In this document: one piece after another, positions 9,612 to 31,804 of the stretch
Layout of the letters: the number at the start of each line of letters is the position of its first letter
Numbering within the stretch: the stretch's first letter is position 1
Assembly: GCA_027009865.1 (NCBI GenBank)
Contig: JALVCR010000099.1
Span: 1 to 35,408, forward strand
Source of the DNA: Campylobacterales bacterium
Lineage (GTDB): Bacteria; Campylobacterota; Campylobacteria; Campylobacterales; JAADDG01
Direction of reading: 5' to 3'
DNA: 35,408 bases
Translations under genes and position numbers: made by a program
The notes under the pieces: model-generated
What the model was told of the DNA's origin: nothing
Seen by the model: the letters and a program-made list of their open reading frames with translations, nothing else
Database searches by the model: none

Positions 9612-10346
9612 TTAAGTTTTAAACCACTTAAGGGAATCTCTAAGCTCTACCACTTTACCTACTACAATTAAAGCTGGAGTTTTTAAACCTTTTGCCAAAT
9701 AGGTTATATTTTCTAAAGTTCCAATTATCGTTTTTTGTTCTTTTGAAGTTCCCCTGCTAATAACGGCAACCGGAAAATCTTTGGGTTTTCCTATCTCAAT
9801 AAGTTTTTTAGAGATATTTTCAAGATTATGAAGCCCCATCAAAAACACTATCGTATCATCGGTTTTGAAATTCTCCCACGGAATCTGGCTTGTCTCTTTA
9901 TTTGGCGCCTCATGACCGGTTACAACTCGAAAACTTGCGCTAATCCCTCTATGAGTTACCGGTATTCCAGCATAAGCTGGAACGCTTATAGCTGAAGTAA
10001 TGCCCGGAATTACCTCAAATTCAATTCCCTTTTTCTTTAAATATATTCCCTCTTCTCCGCCTCTTCCGAAAACAAAAGGATCTCCGCCCTTTAGTCTCAC
10101 CACAATATCATACTTTAAAGCGCTTTGATAGATAACTTCATTTATCTTATCTTGCGGCAGGATATGTTTCCCATCCTCTTTTCCCACATATAAAAATTCG
10201 CATCCGTCTTTACACATCTTTAAAATTTCAGGATTTGCTAAACGATCGTAAATTACTACGTCGGCTTTTTTTATCACTTTTGCCGCTTTTAAAGTTAAAA
10301 GCTCAATATCTCCGGGACCTGCTCCCGTTAGATAAACTTTACCCAT
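9612..10346 (-). CDS. cobA: Uroporphyrinogen-III C-methyltransferase (CobA/NirE; first step towards sirohaem and haem d1)
   Basis: Motifs GAGPGDIELLT, LKGGDPFVFGRGGEE and GITS...AGIP, about 244 aa, last gene of the nir biosynthetic block. Confidence 0.9.
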   Translation of the reverse strand: MGKVYLTGAGPGDIELLTLKAAKVIKKADVVIYDRLANPEILKMCKDGCEFLYVGKEDGKHILPQDKINEVIYQSALKYDIVVRLKGGDPFVFGRGGEEGIYLKKKGIEFEVIPGITSAISVPAYAGIPVTHRGISASFRVVTGHEAPNKETSQIPWENFKTDDTIVFLMGLHNLENISKKLIEIGKPKDFPVAVISRGTSKEQKTIIGTLENITYLAKGLKTPALIVVGKVVELRDSLKWFKT

Positions 10347-10358
10347 ACTCTTTTTCCC

Positions 10359-14226: not shown

Positions 14227-14249
14227 TTTACACCCCTCCAAAAATAATT

Positions 14250-14321
14250 AAAGCTGTTTGGAGAACCAAAAATTTTGGCTTTCCAAACAGCTTTTAGTAA
14301 ATATCGGGCAAAAGCCCGATA
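14250..14321 (-). terminator. Tandem hairpins downstream of nirS (terminator/attenuator)
   Basis: The first is TATCGGGC-tttt-GCCCGATA (14321..14302). The second is a 13-bp stem AAAGCTGTTTGGA/TCCAAACAGCTTT (14250-14262/14282-14294) with an inner CCAAAA/TTTTGG stem, followed on the minus strand by AATTATTTTT. Confidence 0.7.
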
Positions 14322-14324
14322 CTA

Positions 14325-16255: not shown

Positions 16256-17680
16256 TTAAGCTGCAGCAACAGCTCCTTCTCTAACTTCTGCCGGTTGTTT
16301 TTTATCTATTGTTAGAAGGTCATATACCAAAAATCCATATCCCACAACTACAGCAAGTCCTGAGAATAGTCTCCAGCCCATACCTTGAACAAACCATTGA
16401 TTTGCTTGAGCTATAAAATATCCTTCCCAAGTTCCACCATATTGACCTCTCTCTACCATTGTTTGAACATATGCAGAAATAGTCAAAGATACGCTCATTA
16501 TTAAAACACCAACAGTAATCAAAGTTATCGCCCACCAGCTGGCTTTCGTCATTCTCATCTCTTTAAGACCAGCTTTTCCTTGAATTGCTAAATAGATAGC
16601 TCCTATTAAAATTGCTACATAAGCTCCAAAGAATGCCAAATGTCCATGAGCTGCCGGCCATTGGGTTCCGTGAGTATATAGATTTATTTGAGGCAATGTA
16701 TGCATAAATCCCCATACACCTGCACCTAAAAAGTTTCCAAAAGTCTCAACTGTAAGCCAAGCAAATGCTGGAGTATTTTTAATATTATTACCTTTTCCTC
16801 TCTCTTTTCCCCAGTCATATAATACATGCACAAACAAACCTACAAGAGGAACAGGCTCCAAAGCTGAGAAAAGCGCACCTATCTCCCACCAGTACTCAGG
16901 TGTTCCTATCCAGAAATAGTGGTGACCAAGTCCCAAAATACCGGAACCAAACATCATAGCCACCTCTATCCATAGCCACATTTCCACAACTTTTCTATTA
17001 GCATTTAATGTTTTAATTAGGATATAACCTCCAACGGCGGCTACATAAACCTCCCAAGTAGCCTCAACCCATAGGTGAACAACCCACCACCACCAATATT
17101 GATCAACTGCAATATTGTCGGTATAAAACATACCTGCAAGATACAAACCGGCAAGCGCAATTAAGTCTGCCATCAAAACAACTAAAATTCCGGTATGTTT
17201 TCCTTTCATAACAGTAGCGTAAACATTATATAAAAATACTAATACAACCGCTACTATACCAATATCAGCCCATCTTGGAGCTTCTATATACTCTCTACCT
17301 TCAGTAATAAACCAGATAGTAGATTCTTTACCCGGTCCTATTTGAATGAAAAGATATACCAAAACAACTACAGCTACGGCAGCCGTCAAAATATAAAAAG
17401 CCAAATTACCAAGTTTAACTCCAACAACCTCTATTCCGGCTTCATCTGGAAGCAGCCAATATACAGCCCCTATCATCGCATATAAAAGCCATACAACAAG
17501 AGCGTTTATATGTAAAATTCTTGCTATTGAAAAATCTAATATATTAAACAAAAAGTTTGGATATAAAAATTGAATAGCGGCTACAAGCCCAAACAATAAT
17601 TGAGCACCGAAAAGAACTATAGCAACCATAAAATATTTTAAAGCTAATTTCTGCCCTTCATAAAGTCTATTTCCTTGCAT
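16256..17680 (-). CDS. norB: Nitric-oxide reductase large subunit (cNOR NorB)
   Basis: 474 aa, 12-TM haem-copper-oxidase-like protein with conserved His-containing helices (HINALV, HLWVEA, GHHYFW, HGHLAFFG). There is a 14-nt overlap with norC. Confidence 0.95.
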   Translation of the reverse strand: MQGNRLYEGQKLALKYFMVAIVLFGAQLLFGLVAAIQFLYPNFLFNILDFSIARILHINALVVWLLYAMIGAVYWLLPDEAGIEVVGVKLGNLAFYILTAAVAVVVLVYLFIQIGPGKESTIWFITEGREYIEAPRWADIGIVAVVLVFLYNVYATVMKGKHTGILVVLMADLIALAGLYLAGMFYTDNIAVDQYWWWWVVHLWVEATWEVYVAAVGGYILIKTLNANRKVVEMWLWIEVAMMFGSGILGLGHHYFWIGTPEYWWEIGALFSALEPVPLVGLFVHVLYDWGKERGKGNNIKNTPAFAWLTVETFGNFLGAGVWGFMHTLPQINLYTHGTQWPAAHGHLAFFGAYVAILIGAIYLAIQGKAGLKEMRMTKASWWAITLITVGVLIMSVSLTISAYVQTMVERGQYGGTWEGYFIAQANQWFVQGMGWRLFSGLAVVVGYGFLVYDLLTIDKKQPAEVREGAVAAA

Positions 17681-18344
17681 CTACCGCTCCTTTTATCTTA
17701 CCGAAGTTTCTTGGAAAACCGTTTGTATCAATTGCTGACATAAATTTTAAATATGCAACAACCGCTTTGGCTTCCTCTTTAGTAATCCCCAAATTTGGCA
17801 TTTTCCTCTCATGCATAGCCATTGCAGGCGGATTTTCTAAAAACTTGGCTATTGCATACTCTTTACCTCCATACGCGGAAGCTAACGTCTCCCATGTAGG
17901 ATCCAACCAAGCTTTAGTTAAATCAGGCGCATAATAAGCCCCGTTCCCCAAAAGCGTATGACAATCCATACAGTTTTTAGCTTGGATGGTCAACTTTCCT
18001 TTGTGAATTAAAGCTTTCGCCTCTTTTTCACTCCAGTTATCTTTTCCAAAAAATTTCTCTTTTTCTTCATATTTACTATATCCGTTTGCGTCCATTCCTC
18101 CAATAATTGGAATTTCATGTCCTCTTGTTTTATTTAGCTTATAATCTATTTTATAATTTATTACTAATGGAGAAGGAATTCTCTTATCCACTTTATTCTT
18201 TATATCAGCCGCGGTTCCCATTTTCATTTGACCCATAGAATCAAATGTCAAAAAAACTAAAAGCACCGAAGCAACACCCGTAACCCACGTTGCAGACCTA
18301 CGCCAGAATCGATTGCTGGACCAAACAGATGGTCTGTTTTCCAT
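17667..18344 (-). CDS. norC: Nitric-oxide reductase cytochrome c subunit (NorC), extended form
   Basis: N-terminal TM anchor, a single CMDCH motif and a downstream Met ligand region. It sits immediately upstream of and overlaps norB. Confidence 0.9.
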   Translation of the reverse strand: MENRPSVWSSNRFWRRSATWVTGVASVLLVFLTFDSMGQMKMGTAADIKNKVDKRIPSPLVINYKIDYKLNKTRGHEIPIIGGMDANGYSKYEEKEKFFGKDNWSEKEAKALIHKGKLTIQAKNCMDCHTLLGNGAYYAPDLTKAWLDPTWETLASAYGGKEYAIAKFLENPPAMAMHERKMPNLGITKEEAKAVVAYLKFMSAIDTNGFPRNFGKIKGAVDARK

Positions 18345-18356
18345 TGTACCTCCTTT

Positions 18357-18689
18357 TTAAATTTGGTTTGATTCGCTCTCAAATCTATTATGAACTTTTT
18401 CAAGCAAAAAATAGACTACATGTGGAAAAACAAGATAGCCAAACATAGCTCCTATAAGCACCTTCTGAGTATAAGGCTCCACTTTCAAAAGCTCTCCTAA
18501 ATAGTAGATACATCCTACCAATATAAGCCATGAAAGATAAGCGAATACCATAAAATATCTTTTTACCAACTTTAGTTTCACTACGGTAAAAAATCCGGCA
18601 TACGCCATTCCAAATAAAATCACCAGAGCAGAAACTACAAATATTGGTAAAAAGTGGCTTGAAGGGATATCTTGTATATAATATTCCAA
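18357..18689 (-). CDS. Hypothetical 110-aa polytopic membrane protein, first gene of the nor unit
   Basis: TTG start with SD AGGAGGG and 3-4 hydrophobic helices. It ends 12 nt upstream of norC and lies directly downstream of the FNR box and a TATAAT. Confidence 0.6.
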   Translation of the reverse strand: MEYYIQDIPSSHFLPIFVVSALVILFGMAYAGFFTVVKLKLVKRYFMVFAYLSWLILVGCIYYLGELLKVEPYTQKVLIGAMFGYLVFPHVVYFLLEKVHNRFESESNQI

Positions 18690-18745: not shown

Positions 18746-18759
18746 TTGACGTCGGTCAA
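18746..18759. promoter_or_regulatory. FNR/CRP-type box TTGACGTCGGTCAA in the divergent nor / regulator intergenic region
   Basis: Palindromic half-sites TTGAC/GTCAA. A TATAAT lies at 18713-18718 (minus) upstream of the 110-aa ORF. The regulator gene starts 92 nt away on the + strand. Confidence 0.6.
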
Positions 18760-18850: not shown

Positions 18851-19489
18851 ATGGAAAATATAAGAAATTTTTATCTGTTTAAAAATCTAAAAGAGAATCA
18901 GCTTCAAGAATTAAAAAATATTTCTATTATAAAAGAATACAAAAAAGGAAGTATCCTTTTTTATGAAGGAGATAAGGCTAAATCTTTAATTTTGCTAATA
19001 GCTGGGATATTACAAATTTATAAAACCGATCATAGGGGAAATAAGATAGTTTTGCATACATTTTATCCCCAAGAGTTGATAGCCGAAATAGCAAATTTCG
19101 AAAATATGCCATATCCCGCAACTGCAGAATTTATGACAAGCGGAAAAGTGGTGCATATAGATTATAAAAAATTTGAAGAAAAATTTTTAAAGAATCCTGA
19201 GATATCTTTTACTATAATTAAATCTTTAAGCAATAAAATCAAATACCTTGAAAATGTAATAACAAACGATATAGTCTTAAGCTCAACGGCAAGAGTAGCT
19301 AAATTTATCTATAAACATGAAGAAGAGTTTTTAAAGCTCAAAAAAAATGAGATAGCAACTATCATGAATATTACACCAGAAACTTTATCTCGTATAATAG
19401 GAAAACTAAAAAAATTGAAAATTTTAGAAAAAGAGAGAAATAATTATAAAATTATAAATAGAGAGGGATTAAAATCCCTCTTTGAGTAA
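18851..19489 (+). CDS. Crp/Fnr-family transcriptional regulator, cysteine-free (NssR/Dnr/NnrR-like class)
   Basis: N-terminal cNMP-binding-like beta-roll (GSILFYEGD). The C-terminal HTH (EIATIMNITPETLSRIIGKLKK) carries the FNR-type E--SR recognition motif. No Cys anywhere in the 212 aa. Confidence 0.9.
   Translation: MENIRNFYLFKNLKENQLQELKNISIIKEYKKGSILFYEGDKAKSLILLIAGILQIYKTDHRGNKIVLHTFYPQELIAEIANFENMPYPATAEFMTSGKVVHIDYKKFEEKFLKNPEISFTIIKSLSNKIKYLENVITNDIVLSSTARVAKFIYKHEEEFLKLKKNEIATIMNITPETLSRIIGKLKKLKILEKERNNYKIINREGLKSLFE
19462..19481. terminator. Hairpin AGAGGGATT-aa-AATCCCTCT embedded in the last codons of the regulator gene
   Basis: 9-bp inverted repeat. It lies 3' of the PAS gene stop on the minus strand, followed there by a T-rich run, and at the 3' end of the + strand gene. 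It may act as a bidirectional terminator. Confidence 0.4.
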
Positions 19490-20018: not shown

Positions 20019-20369
20019 TTAAATATATTTTTTCTTTAAATCACCGTTATATACTATCTCTTCAGCTCTTACATCTTTTTCCAAAATCTCTGGAACGGGA
20101 TTTTTAATAACTTCAAAATTTTCCCTCGCTTGGTCTAACTCCTCTTCGCTATAAGAGTAGACCATATCAGCACTTAAAACCCCTTCTAAAAATTGAAGAG
20201 TCTTTAGTTTTTTTACCTCCTCTTCTATTCCATCACCTTCGATAGTTACTATAATATACCCCTTTTCATCAACTATATGAATATCGCAAACTCCGCTCTC
20301 TTCTACCCTTTTTTTGACATCTTCTAAATCTTGAGGATTACACCTTATTACACAACTTGATATATTCAT
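20019..20369 (-). CDS. napD: NapD, NapA signal-peptide-binding chaperone
   Basis: About 116 aa with a ferredoxin-like small-protein pattern (ISSCVI..., IVTIEGD). Last nap gene, in the canonical position. Confidence 0.85.
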   Translation of the reverse strand: MNISSCVIRCNPQDLEDVKKRVEESGVCDIHIVDEKGYIIVTIEGDGIEEEVKKLKTLQFLEGVLSADMVYSYSEEELDQARENFEVIKNPVPEILEKDVRAEEIVYNGDLKKKYI

Positions 20370-21326
20370 CTATTTTAACCTCCATTTCATAATTTCACCA
20401 GTTTCACTTCCAGTAATTATAGTTTTGTTATCTATAAATTTTACAGAATTTACTATATTTTTATGGCCTATCAATTTATCTTTTAAATCGAAAGTAAAAG
20501 GATTGGCGATTTTTAAAATATATTTATCATTATCCCCATAAACAACATAAGAATCATCGGGCGCTACAGCAGTAGCGTAAACAAAAAAATCACATCTCTT
20601 AGACCAGCCTTTTTTATCTTTTAGGCTGTAAACTCCAAGAGTTTTATCTCCCCTGCTTCCTGCAGCTATCATATCATTTGTAGTAAAAATAGAAATAACT
20701 TTATCTTTATTTATATCTTTAAAAAGATTAATTCTTTTCAAATTGGAAGTATCCACTACTATAATTTCACCACCCTCATCTCCTATAACTATAAATTTTC
20801 TATTAGGAGAGATATCCATAGAGGAGTAAAAATACTCTCCCGCCACTGCTCTTTTTAATATCTTTTTATTTTTTATATCGTATAAAACAGTTTCATCACT
20901 CATCAAAACCAAAATTGCCTTATCTTTATCTACAAATTTGGCAGCTTTTGCATAAAGAGAAAGAGATTTATCCAAAACTTTTTTTGTCTGATTATTTTCG
21001 TTGATAAAAAGCTCGCTATACCCATCTTCGGCTTGAGCTAAAAATAAAATTTTACCATCTAAAACATCTACACTGTAAATATCGCTCTCATGAAGTTCAC
21101 CCATAAAATCTTTTATTTTTCTAATCTTAATCTCATTTAAAATTTTAAAATTATCTATATCCATAACTATAACTTTACCGCCATCGGTAGCAATATACAA
21201 ACTGTTTTTATAAATTTTCATATCCAAAACGCCCACATTAAGTTTGATACTTAAAGAGGGCTTTATATCACTTCCAAGCAGAATAGTTACAGATAAAATA
21301 AAAAGAAAAACTTTTTTAAACATCAT
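20370..21326 (-). CDS. napL: NapL, periplasmic beta-propeller protein of Campylobacterota nap operons
   Basis: Signal peptide and a repeat-rich propeller-like sequence. It sits between napF and napD, as in napAGHBFLD. Confidence 0.75.
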   Translation of the reverse strand: MMFKKVFLFILSVTILLGSDIKPSLSIKLNVGVLDMKIYKNSLYIATDGGKVIVMDIDNFKILNEIKIRKIKDFMGELHESDIYSVDVLDGKILFLAQAEDGYSELFINENNQTKKVLDKSLSLYAKAAKFVDKDKAILVLMSDETVLYDIKNKKILKRAVAGEYFYSSMDISPNRKFIVIGDEGGEIIVVDTSNLKRINLFKDINKDKVISIFTTNDMIAAGSRGDKTLGVYSLKDKKGWSKRCDFFVYATAVAPDDSYVVYGDNDKYILKIANPFTFDLKDKLIGHKNIVNSVKFIDNKTIITGSETGEIMKWRLK

Positions 21327-21801
21327 CTACCCTCTTTTTAATTTTTATGGCATTTGTCGGACATACTCTTACACAAAAACCGCAGCCTGTGCAGATGTCT
21401 GAAATGATTTCTGGCCTAAAAAGCCCTAAAAATTTTATGGCTCTATCATCGCAAACATCTAAACAGAATCTGCACATAGTCTGATTCCATGCAAGGCATT
21501 TTAATATATCTATCTCCATCAAAACATTTACAAAGTTTTTATTTTCTACTTTTAAAACTTCATAAGGACAACTCTTAGCGCACTCATCGCAAAAAGTGCA
21601 GCCGCTTTTAGAAAAGTCTAAAATCGGTTTTTTATCAACTATTTTTATTATTTCCTCTTCGCAAACTTTAGCGCATTCGCCTTCACAATCTGCACACTTT
21701 TTGAAATCTGAAATATCTTTGTAGTAGGGAGGCAGAGGAACAATTTCCTCCGCTTTATCTTGCTTAAAGATTTTTGTAAAAATCTCCCTTCTGCTTTTCA
21801 A
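21316..21801 (-). CDS. napF: NapF, cytoplasmic poly-ferredoxin
   Basis: Four Cys clusters (CADCEGECAKVC, CTFCDECAKSCP, CRFCLDVC, CTGCGFCVRVCP) and no signal peptide. Confidence 0.85.
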   Translation of the reverse strand: MKSRREIFTKIFKQDKAEEIVPLPPYYKDISDFKKCADCEGECAKVCEEEIIKIVDKKPILDFSKSGCTFCDECAKSCPYEVLKVENKNFVNVLMEIDILKCLAWNQTMCRFCLDVCDDRAIKFLGLFRPEIISDICTGCGFCVRVCPTNAIKIKKRVDDV

Positions 21802-22398
21802 TTACTTTACACCTTCCATTAAGTTTTTATAAAGGAAAGATTTATGCTTATCTTCAGGATTTCTATAATCTGGTTTAAATGTGTTAGCTACTAATGGTTT
21901 TGCATTTGCTTGAGGCACATGACATTGAGAGCAGTTATATCTTTGGGGAGCTATATCCTCTTTTTTTGCCATTAAAGTCAATCTTGCTTTATAGGCTACC
22001 TCATCTTCATATAATTTATGTTTAATTAGCTTTCTTTTGGTATCAAAAAAGAAATCTTTAAAATGTGTCGGAGGTAAAGGAGTAGCTCCCATACTTTTTG
22101 CAACATTTGGCATATGACATTGTAAACATGCATTTCGTTTAATAGTTATAGGCAACAAACCATCTACACTATGAGGAATCAAAGGAGGCGCATTCTCATA
22201 ACTTCTTGCAAACTTTTTAGATGTTCCGGGAGCAGCTTTTGAATATTCAACTTTAGGCGGAATACCTTGATCTGAATAGCCAAGTTTACTCTCCGGCACA
22301 ACTTGATTATTAGAAGCCGTAGCAGCTCCGCATCCTCCTACAATAGCAGCAACTACTACCAAAGAAAGACTTAAACGTTTCATTTTACTTAACTTCAT
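21802..22398 (-). CDS. napB: NapB, dihaem cytochrome c subunit of periplasmic nitrate reductase
   Basis: Signal/lipobox-like N-terminus (VGGC) and two CxxCH motifs (CLQCH, CSQCH). Confidence 0.9.
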   Translation of the reverse strand: MKLSKMKRLSLSLVVVAAIVGGCGAATASNNQVVPESKLGYSDQGIPPKVEYSKAAPGTSKKFARSYENAPPLIPHSVDGLLPITIKRNACLQCHMPNVAKSMGATPLPPTHFKDFFFDTKRKLIKHKLYEDEVAYKARLTLMAKKEDIAPQRYNCSQCHVPQANAKPLVANTFKPDYRNPEDKHKSFLYKNLMEGVK

Positions 22399-23219
22399 TT
22401 TTTCCTCTCCTTTTTAACAAATTCTCTAATACTGAAATTTAGAGCGTCATCATCGCATACTTCTACGCATCTTCCGCATAAAGTGCACTCTCCCATATTC
22501 ACGGACAAGCTCTTTTTGCCTATCATAAAAAGCACTTCTTTTTCAGGACAAACCTCTTTACACTTCATGCAAAGAGTGCAGTTTGGCTGATTATGTTTTA
22601 CTCTAAAAAGGCTAAATCTTCCAACTAAAGAGTAAAAACCCCCAAGCGGACAAATATGGCCGCACCAGCCGTTTTTTAATACAAAAAGGTCAAACAGAAA
22701 TATAGTCAAAATAGCAGCCCATCCAAACCCCATTCCAAAAACCAAGCCTCTATGAGTCATGGAAACGGGACTTACTATTTCAAAAGCTGCTGTGCCTAAA
22801 AGAAAAGATATTATAAAACTAAGCCCCATTGCCCAATACCTGATATTTCTGCTTGCCCACCACTTCTTCTCTACTTTATCAAATCCTCCCTTTCTCCTTA
22901 TAAAATTGGCAAGGTCGGTAACCATATTTACAGGACATACCCAGCTGCAAAAGGCACGCCCTCCTATTAGCATATAAAATAGAGTAACTATAAATGCACC
23001 TATCAATGCATTTGCTCCAACTATACTGCCTGCTGCAAAAATCTGCAATACAGCATAAGGATCCGACAAAGGAATAGTATCTACAACTTTGGAAGAACTT
23101 AGATTCCCCTCCAAAATTTTCCATCCCCAAACATTAGCAGCTATATATAAAAACATAATGGCAATTTGAGTTAGACGTCTTAAAATTAAAAATCTATATT
23201 TTTTCCATATCTTATTCAA
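22395..23219 (-). CDS. napH: NapH, membrane FeS quinol dehydrogenase subunit
   Basis: Four TMs, motifs CSWVCPVN and CGHICPLG, and two C-terminal 4Fe-4S motifs. It is a paralogue of nosH. Confidence 0.9.
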   Translation of the reverse strand: MNKIWKKYRFLILRRLTQIAIMFLYIAANVWGWKILEGNLSSSKVVDTIPLSDPYAVLQIFAAGSIVGANALIGAFIVTLFYMLIGGRAFCSWVCPVNMVTDLANFIRRKGGFDKVEKKWWASRNIRYWAMGLSFIISFLLGTAAFEIVSPVSMTHRGLVFGMGFGWAAILTIFLFDLFVLKNGWCGHICPLGGFYSLVGRFSLFRVKHNQPNCTLCMKCKEVCPEKEVLFMIGKKSLSVNMGECTLCGRCVEVCDDDALNFSIREFVKKERKK

Positions 23220-24060
23220 AATCTATCCCTTCATTTAGAGATTCAACGGCACTCTTCTTACTTCTTGGAGTAACCGTTGTCTGAATTCCCTTGCTTCCTT
23301 TAAGACGTCTCTCATCACTCTTTTGCCACCCTTTTACATAATGGCTTCCAACCTTTCCTAAGGCTACATCTCTTGGCAAAACTTTTATAGCTGCAATTTC
23401 AGTTACACACGCATGCTCGCAAAGACCGCATCCAGTGCAGTAATCGGGATCGACAACCGGTAAAAGTTTTGCATGCTTTCCGGTTCTCTCATTTTGCCTA
23501 TACTCCATAAAAATAGCCTTATCCAATAAAGGACAGGCTCTATAGCAAGCATCGCACTGTATTCCCCAATAAGCTATGCAATCTTTTATATCTACAATGG
23601 CAACACCCATTCTCATTTGAGTAATATCAAAAACTCTCTTACCCTCTTTAACCTCAGAAACACTATCTATATCAAGTGCTCCCGTAGGACAAGGAGGAAC
23701 ACAAGGAATATCATCGCACATATAGCATGGAATATCCCTTGGAATAAAATATGGCGTTCCTATCGGTTTATTATCTCCCGGCTTTGCAAGCATTAAAGTA
23801 TCATAAGGACAAGCCTCCACGCAAAGCCCGCATTTAATACAAAGAGATATGAAATCTTTCTCTTTTTTAGCTCCCGGCGGTCTTAGGAGGAGAGGAGCGG
23901 CTTTAGCCTCATCTACAAAAGCGCTCCATACCAATCCTCCTACTGTTGCTATCGCAACATTCTGTGCCATTTGAATGAGAAATCTTCTTCTCTCTTTATT
24001 TTTGGGAGCTTTATTTTTTCCCATCTCCTCCCCCTCTTTAAGGCTTTTAGAATTGTTCAA
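23212..24060 (-). CDS. napG: NapG, periplasmic poly-ferredoxin (Tat substrate)
   Basis: Twin-arginine motif ERRRFLIQ and four FeS motifs. The track start is TTG with SD AAGGAAGGA; ATG at 24022-24024 (MGKNK) is an alternative. Confidence 0.9.
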   Translation of the reverse strand: MNNSKSLKEGEEMGKNKAPKNKERRRFLIQMAQNVAIATVGGLVWSAFVDEAKAAPLLLRPPGAKKEKDFISLCIKCGLCVEACPYDTLMLAKPGDNKPIGTPYFIPRDIPCYMCDDIPCVPPCPTGALDIDSVSEVKEGKRVFDITQMRMGVAIVDIKDCIAYWGIQCDACYRACPLLDKAIFMEYRQNERTGKHAKLLPVVDPDYCTGCGLCEHACVTEIAAIKVLPRDVALGKVGSHYVKGWQKSDERRLKGSKGIQTTVTPRSKKSAVESLNEGIDFE

Positions 24061-24074
24061 AACAATTCCTTCCT

Positions 24075-26885
24075 TTATGCTTTATAAATTTTAACCGCAC
24101 ATTTTTTGTAATCGGTTTGTTTAGAAATAGGACAAGTTGCATCCAATGTAACTTTATTTATAAAAACCCTCTCGTCAAACCAAGGAACAAACACCAATCC
24201 TTTAGGAGGTCTGTTTCTTCCTCTTGTCTCAACTCTTGCTTTGATTTTTCCTCTTCTGCTCTCTACCCAAACCAAATCTCCTCTTTTTACGCCTCTTTTC
24301 TTGGCATCTTCAGGATGCATATAGCAAAGAGCTTCAGGAACCGCGCGATATAGTTCTGGAACTCTCATAGTCATTGTTCCACTGTGCCAATGCTCCAAAA
24401 CCCTTCCTGTGCATAGCCAAGTATCATACTCTTTATCCGGAGTCTCAGGCGGCTCCATATAAGGTCTCATAAATATTTTGGCTTTATTTGGCAAATGAAC
24501 TTTAGGCTTGGATTTATCAGGACCCCTTAGAGTTCCTTGAGGAATAGTTTTTAGAGCATGCCCATAGAATGCAAACTCTCCTTTAACTCTTCCTTTCTCT
24601 TTCTCTCTTTTTGCATAAGGATCGTAGTTTACGTTAAATCTCCAAGGAGTATCTTTACCGTTAACTACAGGCCATCTTAAGCCTCTTACTTTATGATAAA
24701 CATCAAACGGAGCATAATCGTGTCCACGTCCCGCACCAAATTGTCTATACTCTTCCCAGAGAGCTTTTTGAATAAAGAATCCATATCCTTTAAAAGGCTT
24801 TCCGTCAGTTCCTATTACGTTTCTCTTATCTCCCTCAGCTTCCGTATTTCCAAAACCTTCGCCTATTGGGTCAGGCCATTTGAAAGATTTGTAATATTTA
24901 TTGGCAAATAGAACATCAAACAAATTATCCTCAGGGCTATAACCCATTTTTTTAGCTTCTTCTAAAACATTTGGCAATACTGTGCCGTCAGGAAGTTTCC
25001 ACTCTTTCCATACCTCTTTTAGTTTAAATCTTTTTGCAAACTCAGTATATTGCCAAACATCAGGCATAGCATTTCCGACAGGAGTTACTTGCTGTCTCCA
25101 GTGTTGAGTTCTTCTCTCAGCATTTCCGTAAGCTCCCCATTTTTCGTAAATCATAGCACTTGGTAAAATAAGATCCGCTACTTTGGCGCTGATTCCAGGA
25201 TATCCGTCGCTTACTACAATAAAGTTATCCATAGTTCTTGCGGCTTTTATCCAGTGATTGGCATTTGCAGTATCTTGCCAAGGATTACATACTTGAACCC
25301 AAGCAAATTTTATTTTTCCATCTTCCAAATCTCTCATTATTTTAACGATATGGCTTCCAACTTTAGGATTAATGGTTCCTTTTGGTAATCTCCAAATTTT
25401 CTCTGCAATCTCTCTGTGTTTTGGATTAAATACTACCATATCTGCCGGAAGTCTGTGAGCAAATGTTCCAACCTCTCTTGCAGTTCCGCAAGCGCTTGGC
25501 TGTCCAGTTAAACTAAAAGCTCCGCTTCCTGGAAGAGATTGTTTTCCTACTAAGAAATGAACAACATAGCTTAACTCGTTATCCCATGTTCCTCTGGTAT
25601 GCTGATTCATACCCATCGTCCAGAAGGATACTACTTTTCTGCCCTTCTCAACATAGTAATCTTTAAGTCTTTTTAGTTTTGCTTTAAAGCTCTCCAAACT
25701 CTCATCTGGATCTCCCTTTGCCACTTTTGCCACATAATCAAGAGTATAAGGTTCAAGTCCTTTTTTAAATTCTTCAAAACTGATAGCCCAATGCTTTCCG
25801 GCAGCTTTTGCATGTTTCATTTGCATAACTTTAGTATCGCCATAGCCAAAAGGTTTAAGAGCCACTCTCTCTGCATCGCTTAAAGGTTTTGCAGCTTGAT
25901 GGGATACAGTCTCCATCTCTTTTTTGCTGTATCCAAGCTTTGCAGCATGTTTTGGATTTCTCATACCGTAACCGATATCAGGAAATCCTGTGGCAAATAC
26001 GGTATAGTCTTTAACAAAATTCCAATCTATGGCATCTGGGTGATCATAAACTATGCTTCTTGCAATATAGTTCCAAATTGCCAAATCTGTATTTGGTTTG
26101 AAAATAATAACATCATCTGCCAAATCACAAGTTCTGTGAACATATGTAGATAAAACTACAACTTTCACTTTTTTAGGATTAGAAAGTTTTCTATCGGTAC
26201 ATCTTGCCCACAAAATCGGATGCATCTCCGCCATATTGGAGCCCCATACCGCAATCGTATCGGTAAGCTCTATATCGTCATAACAACCTGCCGGTTCATC
26301 TATTCCGAAAGTTTGAATAAATCCTGCAACCGCACTTGCCATACAGTGTCTTGCATTCGGATCTATATTGTTGCTTCTAAATCCCGCTTTCATCAATTTA
26401 GCGGCGGCATAACCCTCTTGAACCGTATATTGTCCCGAACCAAAAAAGGCCACGCCTGTAGGTCCAAGCTCGTTATAGGCTCTTTTAAACTGTTTTTCCA
26501 TCTCATCGTAAGCTCTTTTCCAGCTTACTGGCTTAAATTTACCCTTTTTATCAAACTCACCTTTTTCATTAACTCTTAAAAGAGGAGTTGTAAGTCTATC
26601 AGCACCATACATGATTTTGGCAGTAAAATAACCTTTAATACAGTTTAGACCTCTGTTTACCGGAGCCAAAGGATCACCTTTTACAGCAACAATTCTATCA
26701 TTTTTAGTAGCAATCATAATACCGCAACCGGTTCCGCAGAAACGGCAGACCGCTTTATCCCATCTCCATCCCTTTTCAGCTTCCTTGCTCGCAGCTTCCA
26801 CATCTTTTGGGATTGAAAGACCAACGGCACTTGCAGCTGCAGCAGCCGCACTGCTTTTTAAAAAATCTCTACGACTAAGTGACAT
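24075..26885 (-). CDS. napA: Periplasmic nitrate reductase catalytic subunit NapA (Mo-bisMGD, 4Fe-4S)
   Basis: Tat signal [21 protein letters not shown] and an N-terminal FeS motif CRFCGTGCG. It is a large molybdopterin oxidoreductase. I set the start at ATG 26883-26885 (SD AAGGAGG); the 19-aa track extension lacks an SD. Confidence 0.97.
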
Positions 26886-26969
26886 ATAAGCCTCCTTCTT
26901 AATTTTACCCTGTAACAGGCAATAGTAGACTAACAATAGCAATTCTATATTTTTTATAAAAATAGTGCA

Positions 26970-26983
26970 TTGACATAAATCAA
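26970..26983. promoter_or_regulatory. FNR/CRP-type box TTGACATAAATCAA in the divergent napA / FmdE-like intergenic region
   Basis: Lies 85 nt upstream of the napA ATG. A TATAGAAT -10-like sequence follows on the minus strand about 30 nt downstream. Confidence 0.6.
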
Positions 26984-27087: not shown

Positions 27088-27690
27088 ATGAATTATCCTG
27101 CATTTTTCGATAAAGTAGAAAAGATAAAACTATATGATCCTTTAGCGGATTTCTTAGGAGCGATAGAAAACGGCGAGATGCAAATAGAGTATATTGACGC
27201 GGTTAAATTTGCAGGCCACTCCTGCCCTACGGTAGCGGGAGCATATTTGATGACTCTTTTGGGATTAAGAGAGCTTTTTGCTAACTCTTTACCAATTAGA
27301 GGAGAGATAGAGGTTTTTATAAAAGGAGAGAAAAAAGAGGGGGTAAACGGCGTGATAGGAAATACGATAGCTTTTATCTGCGGAGTCAGCGATGAGGCGG
27401 GTTTTAAGGGAATAGGCGGAAATTTCAACAGGTCAAATAAGCTCTTTTTTAATTCTCAAATTCCAAAAGATGTAAGATTAAAAAGAGCAGATACAAAAGA
27501 TTATGTCGATATCTCTTATGATAGTTCTATAATTCCCCCAAATCCTAAAATGAAAGAACTAATGCAGCTTATAATGATGAAAAGAGCGGATGAAAATATA
27601 AAAAAAGAGTTTCAAAAATTGTGGCAAGAGAGAGTTAAGAAGATACTGCTTTCAAAAGAGCTTTGGCCAAAAATGATACTAATCTCTTAA
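27088..27690 (+). CDS. FmdE/FwdE-domain-like protein (putative)
   Basis: Motifs GHSCPTVAGAY and ...ICGVSDEAGFKGIGGNF... resemble the FmdE family signature (GHxCPG..G, C..D..q..tG). SD GGGGAGAG. Transcribed divergently from napA. Confidence 0.5.
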   Translation: MNYPAFFDKVEKIKLYDPLADFLGAIENGEMQIEYIDAVKFAGHSCPTVAGAYLMTLLGLRELFANSLPIRGEIEVFIKGEKKEGVNGVIGNTIAFICGVSDEAGFKGIGGNFNRSNKLFFNSQIPKDVRLKRADTKDYVDISYDSSIIPPNPKMKELMQLIMMKRADENIKKEFQKLWQERVKKILLSKELWPKMILIS

Positions 27691-27692
27691 AA

Positions 27693-27716
27693 AGTCCCTT
27701 TTAGGGACTATTTTTT
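27693..27716. terminator. Bidirectional terminator between convergent genes
   Basis: AGTCCCT-ttt-AGGGACT flanked by an A-run (27689-27692) and a T-run (27711-27716). It overlaps the TAG of the minus-strand gene. Confidence 0.7.
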
Positions 27717-28214
27717 GATATATGTCAAAAATTTATCTTCACTCTCTTTGGCGCTAAATACTTCATAACCTCTCTTTAAAAACTCATCAATTAAAGGAGC
27801 CGGCTTAAAATCGGTCTCTAACAGCAAAACATCCCCTTTTTCAAAATCTTTTAAAATTTTATTGATATAGGAGAGAGGATTTTCTCCTTCATCTAAAAGC
27901 TTGTTTCCATTAACTATTGCTTTTGGCTCTTTTGTAGCCCATATAGGAAAACTTTTTTCCTCTTTTTGCTCATTATCTTCAATATTTTCAATCTCTTCTT
28001 TTCCAACAAGCCTTCTTATTTTATTTAATAAATCCAAAGGCTCCATTCCCCCTACGATAGCCGCTTGTTTGATACCGGCTACCCTTGCTATTGTTCTTCT
28101 TAAAACGGGGTTTTTTAGCTTTTTAAATTTGGGATTTATTTTAATAAGCTCATCTTCTAAGAAAGGATACTCCTTTAAAAGATCGTAAATCTTGGTATTT
28201 AAATCTATCTCCAT
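27708..28214 (-). CDS. Two-domain protein: DUF1858-like N-terminus plus DUF2249-like C-terminus
   Basis: The N-terminus (IYDLLKEYPFLEDELIKINPKFKKLKNPVLRRTIARVAGIKQAA) matches my recollection of DUF1858. The C-terminus (GENPLSYINKILKDFEKGDVLLLETDFKPAPLIDEFLKRGYEV) is DUF2249/TusA-fold-like. Last gene of the operon. Confidence 0.55.
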   Translation of the reverse strand: MEIDLNTKIYDLLKEYPFLEDELIKINPKFKKLKNPVLRRTIARVAGIKQAAIVGGMEPLDLLNKIRRLVGKEEIENIEDNEQKEEKSFPIWATKEPKAIVNGNKLLDEGENPLSYINKILKDFEKGDVLLLETDFKPAPLIDEFLKRGYEVFSAKESEDKFLTYIKK

Positions 28215-28432
28215 ATCTTCTCGCCCCTTTTATATCGCCTATACATTATATAGAAATCTTTAAAAATCAAAATAAGAGAATATATCCATAAAATATCCAA
28301 AACTATATTTCTATCATATCCTAAATAAAAATATAAAACGGGAAGGCCTATAACAATAGGCCATTTCATATAATAAAAAAATAAAATTCCAACCCCGTAT
28401 AGATGGCGAAGCTCCCTTTTTAAATCTCTCAT
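28205..28432 (-). CDS. Small (75 aa) two-TM membrane protein
   Basis: Two hydrophobic helices with basic flanks. It overlaps both neighbours (4 and 10 nt), which suggests translational coupling. Confidence 0.5.
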   Translation of the reverse strand: MRDLKRELRHLYGVGILFFYYMKWPIVIGLPVLYFYLGYDRNIVLDILWIYSLILIFKDFYIMYRRYKRGEKIWR

Positions 28433-28746
28433 TTAAACAGATTTGCCCCCAAAGCCTTCTTAACCTCTTCGCTTGCCATAGTGATATTCCAAGGCGGATC
28501 CCAAACTATCTCAACCGTAACTTCTCCAACCCCCGGAAGCTTCTCTACAGCCTCTTTAACCCACTGCTGCATCATCTGATGCAAAGGGCATCCTCTCGTA
28601 GATAGAGTCATTTTTACATGGACATTATTTTCATCGTCAATCTCCACATCGTAAATAAGCCCCATATCTACAACATTAAATCCAACTTCTGGATCTATTA
28701 CCGTCTTTATCGCATCATAAACTTGCTCTTTTGTAAGTTTACTCAT
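28429..28746 (-). CDS. DUF59 / SufT-like FeS-assembly family protein
   Basis: VIDPEVGFNVVDMGLIY...VKMTLSTRGCPL... is the typical DUF59 (MIP18/SufT) signature. I placed the start at ATG 28744-28746 (SD AGGAG), 2 nt after the upstream stop. Confidence 0.7.
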   Translation of the reverse strand: MSKLTKEQVYDAIKTVIDPEVGFNVVDMGLIYDVEIDDENNVHVKMTLSTRGCPLHQMMQQWVKEAVEKLPGVGEVTVEIVWDPPWNITMASEEVKKALGANLFK

Positions 28747-29989
28747 TTTCACTCCTAAATTCAAGCATCCATTTTAAAGAAAATCCTAAAAATAAAGCTC
28801 CCATAAAAAGCAGATAAACTCCTCCCCTAAAAAGCTCGTCATTGCTTACCAAAAGCCCCAAAGTAGATAAAACTGCTCCAGCAAAACTAAACCAAAACTC
28901 AAATTCCGCCATCTTTTTTGGATACATCTCGTTTAACATCGGAACTTTTCTTTTTCCAACAAGAGGAGAGAATCTATGAAACCATACCAAAAAAGGAACT
29001 ATTTTATAAAGATGGCCGTTTATTAAAAAAGCAAAAAATCCCACAAACAAAAGCCACATTGAGGAATATAAAAAATTATTTGCTCCTCCTCCGCTTAGAA
29101 TATACAAAAATCCAAGCAAAAGCGAAACAAATAAAGATATATAACCAAAAATCATAGATTTATACCAGATATCCATCTCTCTTCTGACTCTTTTTTGATA
29201 AATTAAAAATATCTGATATAAGTAAAAAACTATTGAAACAAAAGAGAGAAAATAGCCGACTAATTTAATAATATCAGCCTTTAAAAAAACTCCTGCAAAA
29301 ACCAAAGCAACCGAATAGATCATAAACTTAAAAGCAAGATTTATAGCTCTCTCATTAAAGCCGTGGGCAAGGCCGAACATTGGAAGCAAAATCAAAGATA
29401 TTCCCATAATTGTAATTAATACATATCCTCCCACAACCGCAAAAACATGAGCTTTTAAAATCTCCTCTATATCAACCCCCATAAATCCAGAAAGCGTCAA
29501 AGCCATCAGAAACCCGCTTAAAATTCCAATCAAAAGAAAAATATTTGAAACTTTGACAGCTTTTACAGTTAATGAATTTAATGAGGTTTTCTTTATCGTC
29601 AAAAACACATCAACCGCAAAAATAATCATTGAGCTTAAAACAAGTATCCCCCCGAAACTTAAAAGTATCGGATTAAGCCAAAAACCGGCTACCAGCAAAA
29701 CAGTTCCTATCAAAAGAAGAGGGAAAATTAGATAATACCAGTCTATGCTAAAATGGCCGGTTTCTAAAACAACCGGGACAAGCTGAGCCATCGCTCCAAA
29801 AATTATCATCATAACATAGCCGATTAAAAAAAGATGAACCCATCCAGCTACGCTAAGCTCTCTAAAATCAAATCCGGCAGAATAAAAAAGAGCCGAAAGC
29901 ATCGACAAAATATAAAAAACAACACCGCTTATAAAAAACGGCGTAATTAATTTAAAAGGCGGCGCAAAATCTTTAGATACGTTAAACAC
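28739..29989 (-). CDS. 416-aa, ~12-TM membrane protein with six conserved-looking His (possible haem/Cu-binding, distant NnrS-like?)
   Basis: By eye there are 12 hydrophobic segments. His residues lie in or next to helices: WVHLF, GHFSIDW, KAHVFAV, LAHGFNE, INGHLYK, WFHRFSP. I recognised no confident family motif. Confidence 0.5.
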   Translation of the reverse strand: MFNVSKDFAPPFKLITPFFISGVVFYILSMLSALFYSAGFDFRELSVAGWVHLFLIGYVMMIIFGAMAQLVPVVLETGHFSIDWYYLIFPLLLIGTVLLVAGFWLNPILLSFGGILVLSSMIIFAVDVFLTIKKTSLNSLTVKAVKVSNIFLLIGILSGFLMALTLSGFMGVDIEEILKAHVFAVVGGYVLITIMGISLILLPMFGLAHGFNERAINLAFKFMIYSVALVFAGVFLKADIIKLVGYFLSFVSIVFYLYQIFLIYQKRVRREMDIWYKSMIFGYISLFVSLLLGFLYILSGGGANNFLYSSMWLLFVGFFAFLINGHLYKIVPFLVWFHRFSPLVGKRKVPMLNEMYPKKMAEFEFWFSFAGAVLSTLGLLVSNDELFRGGVYLLFMGALFLGFSLKWMLEFRSENE

Positions 29990-30005
29990 CTTCTAACTCT
30001 CCTTT

Positions 30006-30350
30006 CTAACCCTCACAGTGAGAATCGTTTAAATTAGCTTTTTCGCTCTCTCCCTCTTTATAGCTAAAAACCAATCTCACATTTCCGTCTGGAAGTTCCT
30101 CTTTTTCAATATTATAGTTTTGCTCAATCTTATTTAAAAGTCCCATTGGCATTTTATGATTTATCATAACAAGCTTGATATTTGGAGAATTTACAAGCTT
30201 CAAACCGGCCATCGCATTTACCATAGGCTCGGGAGGACCGCATCTGCTTGTATCAAATTGATAATAAGTAACTCCGTCTTTTTCATATTTAAAAAAATCA
30301 ACGCTTGCTCCGGGAACCTCCACTTTTTGAGCATTGTCTGGCAAATACAT
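30006..30350 (-). CDS. DUF2249 / TusA-fold-like small protein
   Basis: FDTSRCGPPEPMVNAMAGL...LVMINHKMPMGLLNKIEQ matches the DUF2249 pattern (PPEP...P..L). Strong SD AAGGAGG. First gene after the FNR box. Confidence 0.55.
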   Translation of the reverse strand: MYLPDNAQKVEVPGASVDFFKYEKDGVTYYQFDTSRCGPPEPMVNAMAGLKLVNSPNIKLVMINHKMPMGLLNKIEQNYNIEKEELPDGNVRLVFSYKEGESEKANLNDSHCEG

Positions 30351-30412
30351 AAAAAACCTCCTTATTTAAGATAAAAATTGTCTTATTTTATCACTTCAAA
30401 GCTTTATTGTCA

Positions 30413-30426
30413 TTGATTCATATCAA
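30413..30426 (-). promoter_or_regulatory. FNR/CRP-type box TTGATTCATATCAA upstream of the DUF operon
   Basis: Perfect palindrome 63 nt upstream of ATG 30350. A GATAAAAT -10-like element lies about 30 nt downstream on the minus strand. Confidence 0.6.
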
Positions 30427-30460
30427 AATATAAAATTTTTATCTATTTTATAAGCTGAAA

Positions 30461-31804
30461 TTATTTTCCAAGACAGAAATTAGAAAACATCTTATCTAAA
30501 ATCTCATCTCTCTCAAAAGGTCTTGTTACAGAAGATATATAAGATATTGCATCGTTTAAAAGATATGAGAAAAGCTCTAACTCCCCTTCGCTTAAATGCT
30601 CTTTTGCCTCTTTAATTGCATTCAAAGCTTCTCTGACCGCTTCTATCTGCCTTTTTGATATCAAAATCAGATCATTTTGAATACTTTGGGAATCAAGATA
30701 TTTTTGTATGGAATCCATAACCAAACTTGTATCTTGTTTGCAGCTTATCTTAATTAATTCAAAATCTTTAAATTTAGAGAGATCCAACCTATTTGGAAGA
30801 TCCATTTTATTGATTATTACAAAAATCTTCTTTTTATCTTTATACTCATTAATTAAATCCAATATCTTCTTATCATCGTTGTCAAACTCTCTTGAATTAT
30901 CGAAAACTGCCAAAACTATATCGCTCTCTTCTATCGCTTTTACCGATCTTTGCATTCCCATCTTCTCTATAAAATCCTCGCTCTCCCCCCTGATTCCGGC
31001 GGTATCTACTATCTTTACAAGATGGGTTCCGACTCTTATCTCCTCTTCTATCGTATCTCTCGTGGTTCCGGCAACATCGCTTATAATAGCTCTATTGTAG
31101 CTTAAAATAGAATTTAAAAGAGAGCTTTTCCCGACATTTGGCTTCCCTATTATAGAGATTTTAAACCCCTCTATAAGCCCCTCTCTTTTTAAGCTTATTA
31201 AAAGCGTTTTCTCAAGCTCTTTTGAAATAGAGTCAAGTTTTCTTGAGATATTATCCATCAAATCCAAAGGAAGGTCTTCTTCGGCATAATCTATGCTAAC
31301 TTCCACATAGGCTAAAATCTCAATCAAAGAATCTCTCAAAGAGTCCATATACTCTTTAAGTTCGCCCTTTAGCTGTTTTGAGAGAATTTTAGCGGCATCT
31401 AAGCTTTTGCTCTCTATAAGTTTTGCGATAGCCTCGGCTTTTGTTAAATCTATTCTGCCGTTTAAAAAGGCTCTTTTGGTAAATTCTCCGGGATTTGCGA
31501 GTCTTGCTCCAAGCTTTAGAGTCTCTTCCAAAATCAAAGAGGCCACAACCAAGCCTCCGTGGCACTGAAACTCTATTACATCTTCGCAGGTAAAGCTTTT
31601 TGGAGCCTTAAAGTAGATTACGATAGCTTCGTCAATAAACTCCCCGCTTGTGTTATAGAGATTGCATAAAGTGGCAAAGCGGGGCTTAAAATCATCTTTT
31701 TTAGCCATTTTTTTAGCAATATCCAAAGCCTTATCACCGCTTACTCTGACAATAGCGATAGAGCCGATTCCGTAAGCTGTCGCAATAGCGGATATGGTAT
31801 CTAT
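30461..31804 (-). CDS. mnmE: tRNA modification GTPase MnmE (TrmE)
   Basis: G-domain motifs GKPNVGKSS, DTAG and NKMD, and the C-terminal CLGK. The conserved N-terminus IDTISAIATAYGIGSIAIVRVSG continues 26 codons upstream of the track's TTG start, up to an in-frame TGA. The only possible start is ATA 31802-31804. Confidence 0.9.
   Translation of the reverse strand: MDTISAIATAYGIGSIAIVRVSGDKALDIAKKMAKKDDFKPRFATLCNLYNTSGEFIDEAIVIYFKAPKSFTCEDVIEFQCHGGLVVASLILEETLKLGARLANPGEFTKRAFLNGRIDLTKAEAIAKLIESKSLDAAKILSKQLKGELKEYMDSLRDSLIEILAYVEVSIDYAEEDLPLDLMDNISRKLDSISKELEKTLLISLKREGLIEGFKISIIGKPNVGKSSLLNSILSYNRAIISDVAGTTRDTIEEEIRVGTHLVKIVDTAGIRGESEDFIEKMGMQRSVKAIEESDIVLAVFDNSREFDNDDKKILDLINEYKDKKKIFVIINKMDLPNRLDLSKFKDFELIKISCKQDTSLVMDSIQKYLDSQSIQNDLILISKRQIEAVREALNAIKEAKEHLSEGELELFSYLLNDAISYISSVTRPFERDEILDKMFSNFCLGK

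Follow-up and report, generated by a model that had tools for sequence, protein, structure and literature searches.

DrpA and DrpB of Thermus thermophilus, a DUF2249 protein and a protein made of DUF1858 and two DUF2249 domains, are encoded downstream of nar and depend on DnrT, a regulator of the Crp/Fnr family (PMC6282519). Loss of drpA/drpB deregulates the nar and dnr promoters, and a drpAB double mutant still makes the NarG protein, with about one tenth of the nitrate reductase activity left (PMC6282519). Denitrifying conditions induce all four DUF2249 genes of Haloferax mediterranei, one of which is fused to an iron-sulphur (FeS) carrier NTPase; the same source cites Pei et al. 2014 for a link of DUF2249 with the haem-copper oxidase (HCO) superfamily (PMC11218638). 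A DUF1858 protein encoded next to nnrR is among the products of the most NnrR-dependent genes of Bradyrhizobium (PMC6710368). Here we analyse an operon of five minus-strand genes (g1-g5, 27708-30350), which combines proteins of these kinds with an HCO-like membrane protein and is located between the nap genes and an FmdE-like gene on one side and mnmE on the other. It was found in a stretch of 35,408 nucleotides (nt) of a Campylobacterales bacterium (assembly GCA_027009865.1, contig JALVCR010000099.1), which as a whole is called the window below.

With respect to the membrane protein, Pei, Li, Kinch and Grishin (Protein Sci, 2014) reportedly described HCO-homology (HCOH) families with 12 transmembrane (TM) helices in three 4-TM units and about two conserved His residues, and are said to have recognised NnrS as another HCO homologue. 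NnrS (PF05940), which protects denitrifiers and Vibrio against nitric oxide (NO) stress, is a 12-TM protein that contains haem and copper.

It is strongly supported by our results that the operon encodes a membrane-anchored accessory complex centred on g2. As to its function, we suggest that the operon, which is predicted to be under Nss/Dnr control, protects, repairs or matures the iron centres of respiratory enzymes during NO-generating anoxia and does not encode a respiratory reductase; we would give this reading a probability of about 0.4. The five genes are as follows (aa, amino acids):

30006-30350, minus strand: g1, 114 aa, cytoplasmic, DUF2249 'type b' with a TusA-like CGPPEP motif, C-terminal Cys kept
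28739-29989, minus strand: g2, 416 aa, GTG start, 12-TM homologue of the HCO superfamily
28429-28764, minus strand: g3, 111 aa, cytoplasmic, DUF59/FeS_assembly_P (SufT/PaaD-like; Pfam E 1.1e-22)
28205-28432, minus strand: g4, 75 aa, two hydrophobic helices, no known family
27708-28214, minus strand: g5, 168 aa, fusion of DUF1858 (E 2.5e-16) and DUF2249 'type a' (E 3.2e-4)

All these open reading frames (ORFs) were found, packed as tightly as the preliminary description of the sequence had stated: g1 and g2 are 16 nt apart and the remaining pairs overlap by 4-26 nt.

Fold and family of the membrane protein

The g2 protein has more than 2200 close homologues, every named one of which is 'hypothetical', and its family comprises at least 1643 representative clusters at 50% identity. 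A search against Pfam assigned g2 to no family, giving a weak match to COX1 (E 0.042), and a sequence search against PDB gave no match; the relationship to HCOs is seen only by family profile and fold search. One relative of g2 is named cbb3-type oxidase subunit 1 in a JGI record. The N-terminal sequence MFN[IV]SK[DE]FAPP is conserved in the homologues.

Conservation and the family profile were determined for 50 diverse members. The profile matches the cbb3 oxidase subunit CcoN (8smr_E) at E 2.8e-11, with g2 helices 1-3 aligned with CcoN helices 9-12 and H52 aligned with a haem-ligating His, and COX1 (PF00115) is matched by 31 of the 50 members (best E 1.3e-17). The AlphaFold2 model of g2 (pLDDT 85, pTM 0.88) has 12 long helices. 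When it was compared with PDB using Foldseek, the top 44 matches were all catalytic subunits of HCOs or NO reductases (NORs), after which the scores collapsed; cbb3 CcoN, bo3, cNOR NorB, aa3, qNOR and ba3 are among them, with a TM-score of ~0.7. Moreover, the three thirds of the family alignment are mutually homologous (probability 98%, E 3e-13 to 3e-14). At the fold level, g2 is a member of the HCO superfamily composed of three 4-TM repeats. The positively charged loops after helices 4, 8 and 10, as read from the sequence on the basis of the model helices, place both termini in the cytoplasm, as in HCOs. An hhalign comparison of the family with NorB of the window, used as a single sequence, was weak (probability 35%) and aligned H52 with the TM2 haem His.

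Initially, g2 had been likened to the haem- and copper-binding NnrS. The kinship with haem/copper respiratory enzymes holds true, as indicated by the HCO fold, but the protein is not NnrS by Pfam: PF05940 matched neither g2 (E <=0.1) nor any of the 50 family members (E <=0.01).

One family representative, P0216 (862 aa), is of double the usual length, with two stretches matching g2 and no Pfam match. Either a tandem duplication or the fusion of two HCO-like proteins could account for this.

Conserved histidines and missing metal ligands

The six His residues to which the preliminary description had drawn attention are all present in g2 (positions 52, 79, 181, 209, 326 and 338), but they do not define the family. 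Only H52 (TM2) and H181 (TM6) are invariant, in 50 of 50 members; H79, H209 and H326 are conserved mainly in the Campylobacterota clade, and H338 is variable. The other invariant residues are Q69, V73, P203, F205, P332 and F333. H52 and H181 lie equally deep in TM2 and TM6, each seven residues from the helix end on the periplasmic side, and would suit one bis-His haem. H326 was also considered as a third pseudo-symmetric His. This candidate was rejected, since the alignment of the repeats puts Trp312 at the respective position, while H326 aligns with A66 and is replaced by Gln in most family members.

The HH pair of TM7 and the HxH motif of TM10 are absent from g2, which therefore has neither the CuB/FeB site nor the ligand of the high-spin haem. 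With the HCO fold but without the ligands of the binuclear centre, g2 belongs to the superfamily without being a canonical reductase of O2 or NO. The set of six ligand His residues typical of catalytic HCOs and NORs is lacking, and so is an electron-entry subunit: no cytochrome c or cupredoxin domain was found in g1, g3, g4 or g5 with Pfam and NCBIfam. Searches of g1, g2, g4 and g5 against NCBIfam gave no match except one to rusticyanin, which was dismissed as a chance hit.

Partner proteins of g2

The domains originally assigned to g1, g3 and g5 were recovered correctly in Pfam. The match of g1 to DUF2249 is weak (E 0.064); the g1 family profile, when compared with Pfam-annotated DUF2249 proteins encoded at the same position in distant loci, gave hhalign probabilities of 91% and 81%. 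Two DUF2249 subtypes occur in the distant modules, one with the motif (L/C)-x-P-P-E-P, resembling CPxP of TusA, and the other with G-x-[DN]-P-[FL]. The g1 family matches the former and, in a search with the type-a profile, the C-terminal domain of g5 corresponds to the latter. As both subtypes are present, the operon holds the full conserved set of components (b-type DUF2249, HCO-like protein, DUF59 and a-type DUF2249), to which it adds a small membrane protein and DUF1858. Among Campylobacterota (80 orthologues) the g1 Cys is conserved, with Glu or Leu in distant copies, and g5 contains neither Cys nor His. Hemerythrin and ScdA_N gave no Pfam match in any of the five proteins.

The g3 protein carries the conserved Cys motif of DUF59. 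Its score against TIGR02945, the SUF-associated equivalog, is 111.5 bits, which is under the cut-off of 143.4. The true start of the gene is more likely the ATG at 28746, a conserved start.

The conserved motif of g4 is YG.GILFFYY.K. In Sulfurovum-type loci, a g4 homologue is located directly after napD and ends the nap operon, outside the module (L014:19707-19907, L016:20015-20170, L021:13523-13690, and similar loci). Therefore, g4 may be a nap-associated small membrane protein and not a core subunit.

A three-gene module conserved across genomes

The gene neighbourhood was surveyed in 80 related loci from other Campylobacterota genomes. Wherever the contig left room for the neighbour, g1 adjoins g2 in 75 of 76 loci and g3 adjoins g2 in 68 of 73, and the conserved unit consists of three genes, encoding the DUF2249, HCO-like and DUF59 proteins. 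Thus, wide conservation applies to this core but not to the full five-gene form, which was found in 9/80 loci. With g5 present in these nine and g4 adjacent in 22/80, only Nitratiruptor/Hydrogenimonas-like lineages have all five genes in this arrangement.

The linkage to denitrification genes does recur in other genomes. The module is located upstream of or beside napA in the window and in 16/80 loci, and nap or haem d1 genes lie within 10 kb of it in 12 of the 23 loci with at least 5 kb on each side. In Sulfurovum-type loci the gene order is nirJ, cobA, the Crp/Fnr gene, further genes, g1-g2-g3 and napAGHBFLD, followed by the g4-like gene, and in Sulfurimonas-type loci a Crp/Fnr gene is placed directly upstream of the module. 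Altogether, a Crp/Fnr regulator is adjacent in 24/80 loci and an FmdE-like gene in 13/80. No suf genes adjoin g3 of the module in the surveyed loci.

The same three genes occur together in all seven sampled contigs with distant members of the g2 family (24-30% identity), whose named sources are Calditrichota, Marinimicrobia and Mucilaginibacter (Bacteroidota); related membrane proteins are additionally named from Ignavibacteriae and Nitrospirota. A Crp/Fnr gene is located beside the module in two of these contigs (L082 and L083), and PAS genes are found near it in L084, as well as in the window. In Mucilaginibacter sp. HC2 (L086:4440-9583), the block starts with an Rrf2 regulator and a 421-aa membrane protein weakly related to g2 (E 2e-4), and continues with a RIC-like protein (DUF2249, ScdA_N and hemerythrin), a DrpB-like protein (DUF1858 and DUF2249), the HCO-like protein and DUF59. 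It adjoins nosZ, nosL, nosD and the genes of an ABC-transporter ATPase and an ABC-2 membrane protein. The RIC-like gene accompanies the module in this contig only.

DUF59 is fused to the C-terminus of the g2 homologues P0163, P0199, P0222 and P0236, and such HCO-like/DUF59 fusions form at least 15 clusters of ~520-540 aa in Saprospiraceae and related organisms. Such natural fusions strongly indicate a joint function of the two proteins at the cytoplasmic face of the membrane.

A second, divergent HCO-like paralogue, 26-30% identical to g2, was observed in four Campylobacterota loci (L011:13145-14675, L035:12135-13719, L059:12647-13915, L075:823-2061). It adjoins an FmdE-like gene in L011, L035 and L059, and its own small DUF2249-like ORF precedes it in L011 and L035. 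A second version of the module, associated with FmdE, is suggested by this; the window keeps only the FmdE-like gene of it.

Promoter, regulator and expression

The following elements were identified at the operon and, for comparison, at other genes of the window:

30413-30426: perfect TTGAT-N4-ATCAA palindrome TTGATTCATATCAA, 76 nt upstream of the g1 ATG
30385-30390, minus strand: predicted extended -10 element TGaTAAAAT (consensus scan)
27693-27709: bidirectional terminator hairpin AGTCCCTTTTAGGGACT, G+C-rich, with T-runs on both strands; it separates the stop codon of g5 from that of the convergent FmdE-like gene
6620-6633: perfect box upstream of the 280-aa gene after nosZ
9462-9475: perfect box upstream of nosZ, with a one-mismatch box at 9501-9514
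26970-26983: nap box TTGACATAAATCAA, one mismatch, in the intergenic region of the divergent napA and FmdE-like genes
18746-18759: TTGACGTCGGTCAA, the sole candidate upstream of nor, a symmetric variant with two mismatches in an intergenic region common with the Crp/Fnr gene

The window contains 13 boxes with at most one mismatch, about four times the 3.4 expected, and none of 100 shuffles reached 13. Only three are perfect, all of them intergenic. The preliminary description had reported the same box upstream of nosZ, nosB, nor and nap; this is accurate for the operon, nosZ and the gene after nosZ, but the nap and nor sites deviate by one and two mismatches, respectively. In the 74 of the 80 Campylobacterota loci with enough upstream sequence, a perfect box precedes g1 in 40 and a box with at most one mismatch in 63. 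Nearly all of the conserved boxes lie 75-101 nt upstream of g1, and the background is 0.08 per 340 nt; the box at a fixed distance is therefore a clear phylogenetic footprint, in agreement with the idea that a Crp/Fnr-type box drives the five genes as one operon.

The predicted start site is ~30378, 7 nt past the -10 element, which would centre the box at -41.5 and have it begin 48 nt upstream. The start sites mapped by RNA-seq in Nitrosophilus labii, a close relative, agree with this spacing, as napA, norE and nosB have exact boxes at a distance of 48-49 nt. Multiple sites were reported for nosZ and nosB of this organism (PMC11539149), with which the boxes of the window at nosZ (perfect and one-mismatch) and at the gene after nosZ (perfect) agree. 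The operon promoter is predicted to be of class II and Crp/Fnr-dependent.

The box had been taken for an FNR box. The regulator encoded in the window (18851-19489) has the Pfam domains cNMP_binding and HTH_Crp_2, and its sequence contains no Cys. A canonical FNR, sensing O2 through an FeS cluster, was therefore ruled out, and both protein and site are of the Nss/Dnr type. This Cys-free protein is a candidate activator putatively acting at the box; Nss-type regulators are present in the related N. labii (PMC11539149). Under a predicted class II promoter of the Nss/Dnr type, the operon would be made together with nap, nir, nor and nos during anoxic N-oxide respiration.

The overlapping genes, the box and promoter upstream and the closing terminator hairpin strongly support the view that g1-g5 form one transcription unit. 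On the upstream side (region 30351-30460), the stop codon of mnmE (30461-31726) is only ~35 nt from the operon promoter, which lies downstream of it. No terminator-like hairpin was predicted between mnmE and the promoter, and read-through from mnmE into the operon is therefore possible.

Expression data are available for N. labii, in which WP_187648275 is the g2 orthologue. In the proteome of anaerobic cells, spectra were recorded for the orthologues of g1 (WP_187648274, 114 aa, 186 spectra), g3 (WP_187648276, 102 aa, 19) and g5 (WP_187648278, 166 aa, 115) and for the FmdE family protein WP_187648279 (93 spectra); the two membrane proteins of the operon were not detected in the same proteome (PMC11539149, supplement).

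Proposed role and alternative explanations

In the complex that we propose, H52 and H181 of g2 would be the two axial ligands of one haem b close to the periplasmic face. The C-terminus of g2 would dock the DUF59 FeS-maturation factor g3 at the cytoplasmic face, the two TusA-fold DUF2249 proteins (g1, and g5 with its extra DUF1858) might dock to g2 as well, and the small 2-TM subunit g4 would complete the assembly. Such a complex could protect, repair or mature FeS or non-haem iron centres while the cell generates NO, which would make its role functionally analogous to that of NnrS plus RIC/YtfE. The contribution of g2, the putative haem protein, would be a redox link to the membrane or else a site at which NO binds. 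We favour a role in the handling of iron centres because of the DUF59 partner, the RIC-like and Rrf2 neighbours, the activity defect of the Thermus mutants and the precedent of NnrS. A function in NO stress or metal-centre handling seems to fit the contexts seen elsewhere.

Several observations weigh against this proposal. Haem binding was deduced from two conserved His residues and homology, and a bis-His haem would fit electron transfer better than NO binding. The g5 protein has no Cys or His, and the g1 Cys is not kept outside Campylobacterota. The denitrification genes of N. labii were reported to be expressed under anoxia regardless of N-oxides (PMC11539149). Finally, the Marinimicrobia and Calditrichota copies are located among housekeeping genes with no N-oxide genes nearby; the role of the module may therefore be broader, e.g. 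in oxidative or iron stress.

In its boldest form, the proposal would make the DUF2249/HCO-like/DUF59 module an unrecognised membrane machine built on a degenerate oxidase scaffold, whose one haem might couple the membrane redox pool (or NO binding) to cytoplasmic delivery or repair of iron or FeS. In denitrifiers devoid of NorQD, of which this bacterium is one, it could be the missing factor that cNOR needs for loading or keeping its non-haem iron, or Nap for its FeS centres. We put this forward as a speculation that is unlikely to be right.

The main rival is signal transduction of the DrpA/DrpB kind, in which the haem protein would sense a signal from the membrane or periplasm (NO, O2 or a redox state derived from nitrate) and the DUF2249/DUF1858 proteins would relay it to the Crp/Fnr-family regulator and so tune the denitrification genes. 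The g1 and g5 proteins do share domains with DrpA and DrpB, whose mutants deregulate promoters, a Crp/Fnr gene is found directly beside the module in Sulfurimonas-type loci, L082 and L083, and PAS genes lie nearby in the window and L084. However, this adjacency is explained equally well by plain control of the operon, many copies of the module have no regulator nearby, and the module contains no kinase, receiver or DNA-binding domain. Moreover, a cofactor role fits better than a relay with DUF59, which is a domain of FeS maturation and in some lineages is covalently joined to the membrane protein, and the Thermus double mutant loses enzyme activity after translation as well (PMC6282519). On balance we find sensing rather improbable, although of the alternatives it survives best.

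It is also conceivable that the operon serves a single enzyme encoded nearby, by maturing it or inserting its metal. The client could be NapA/G/H (FeS, Mo) or a cNOR matured without NorQD (FeB), in the latter case with the HCO-like protein as a scaffold or mimic of NorB. The position of the module beside napA, and the g4-like gene that closes the nap operon of Sulfurovum-type loci, would be consistent with this, as would the inactive nitrate reductase of Thermus drpAB mutants (PMC6282519). No norQ or norD was found in the gene annotation of the whole window, and in the NorQD-less cNOR of Thermus the insertion of FeB is host-dependent, with unknown chaperones considered possible (PMC12067857). 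However, NorQD independence is linked in that study to NorB itself, in which a K-pathway analogue is open (PMC12067857), and the three-gene core was also found in contigs and phyla that have no nap or nor in its vicinity. We therefore regard a factor specific for Nap or cNOR as doubtful; like the reductase discussed next, it is less likely than either iron-centre repair or sensing.

A new catalytic reductase or oxidase of the HCO superfamily, acting on NO, O2 or another small molecule at a site formed by clade-specific His residues, might be suggested by the fold of g2, the five His conserved within Campylobacterota and co-expression with denitrification genes, but it is most improbable for a protein with only two family-invariant His and neither the TM7 HH nor the TM10 HxH, whose operon encodes no cytochrome c or cupredoxin subunit for electron entry and whose neighbourhood already encodes a canonical cNOR.

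Protection or repair of iron centres remains the reading that we prefer, and the significance of the operon goes beyond this one genome. The module belongs to the denitrification regulon of Campylobacterota from vents, where these bacteria are major consumers of N2O, and its role would explain how the FeS-rich Nap, Nir, Nor and Nos keep working during NO production. It would also explain what DUF2249 and DUF1858 proteins (DrpA/DrpB) do and what purpose the cofactor-poor relatives of respiratory oxidases serve. The g2 family is large and uncharacterised, and its distant members in Campylobacterota, Bacteroidota, Calditrichota and Marinimicrobia are again accompanied by the other two genes of the module. 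The gene fusions and the fixed promoter architecture offer concrete handles, i.e. the physical partners, two His residues and one box.

Genomic setting of the operon

The window constitutes a complete denitrification island of ~34% G+C from a bacterium resembling Nitratiruptor/Nitrosophilus, with nearly all genes on the minus strand. Its other genes are listed below:

Before 6738, in window order: nosL, nosF, nosH-like, cytochrome c, nosG-like, nosD, then the 280-aa gene
6738-9347: nosZ
9612-15995: cobA, nirF, nirJ, nirN, nirS
16256-18344: norB and norC, then the 110-aa ORF
18851-19489, plus strand: Crp/Fnr-family regulator, then the gene of a PAS protein
20019-26942: napDLFBHGA
27088-27690, plus strand: FmdE-like gene, 200 aa (Pfam FmdE E 3.6e-6), convergent with the operon
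Adjoining the operon on its far side: mnmE, jag, yidC, yidD

The cNOR is encoded ~10 kb from the operon. The 110-aa ORF (18357-18689), which belongs to no family, precedes norCB. There are no suf genes in the window. The FmdE-like protein is a recurrent neighbour and possibly a peripheral component of the module. The match of the mnmE ORF to TrmE_N starts at profile position 26, and its N-terminus therefore looks short.

Comparison with known systems

Among the catalytic subunits, CcoN and NorB share their fold with g2 (significant profile match in addition to the TM-score). However, g2 is ~50 residues shorter, has no CuB/FeB ligands and no cytochrome c partner, and is accompanied by cytoplasmic DUF59 and DUF2249 proteins instead. 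The resemblance to NnrS comprises the 12-TM build and, as far as the predicted regulation and the probable role of g2 are concerned, control by Crp/Fnr-family regulators responding to NO or low O2 and an accessory rather than respiratory function; in contrast, the g2 family lacks the NnrS Pfam match. To our knowledge, NnrS has no DUF59 and DUF2249 partners.

With regard to SufT/PaaD/CIA2, g3 is a clear DUF59 protein but falls below the SufT equivalog cut-off and shows no suf linkage. In comparison with RIC/YtfE (ScdA_N and hemerythrin), the operon lacks a hemerythrin domain, while a RIC-like gene is located directly upstream of the Mucilaginibacter module. We presume that the DUF1858 domain of g5 is related to the N-terminal ScdA_N domain of RIC proteins.

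A likeness to DrpA/DrpB may be seen in the pair of a single-domain DUF2249 protein (divergent in the case of g1) and a DUF1858/DUF2249 protein, encoded beside nitrate reductase genes. Thermus expresses its pair in anoxia by means of a Dnr-type activator of the Crp/Fnr family (PMC6282519), and the operon of the window has the conserved Crp/Fnr-type box. The nitrate reductase genes are nar in Thermus and nap in the window. DrpB, which we liken to g5 by its domain make-up, has two DUF2249 domains and g5 one, and a conserved His was noted for DrpA, whereas the g1 subtype carries Cys (CGPPEP). The Thermus drp operon was described as two adjacent genes, and an HCO-like or DUF59 gene was not reported there (PMC6282519).

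The HCOH families, as reportedly described, agree with g2 in the 12-TM build of three units, in the two conserved His residues and in the strongest similarity to TM9-12 of HCOs, and with the module in their DUF2249 neighbours and denitrification context. The preliminary description had known of no characterised system of such composition, which overlooked two precedents. HCO-homologue families with a DUF2249 context have been known computationally since 2014 (cited in PMC11218638), and DrpA/DrpB of Thermus are partly known genetically (PMC6282519). The operon g1-g5 is a member of this already recognised, though uncharacterised, kind.

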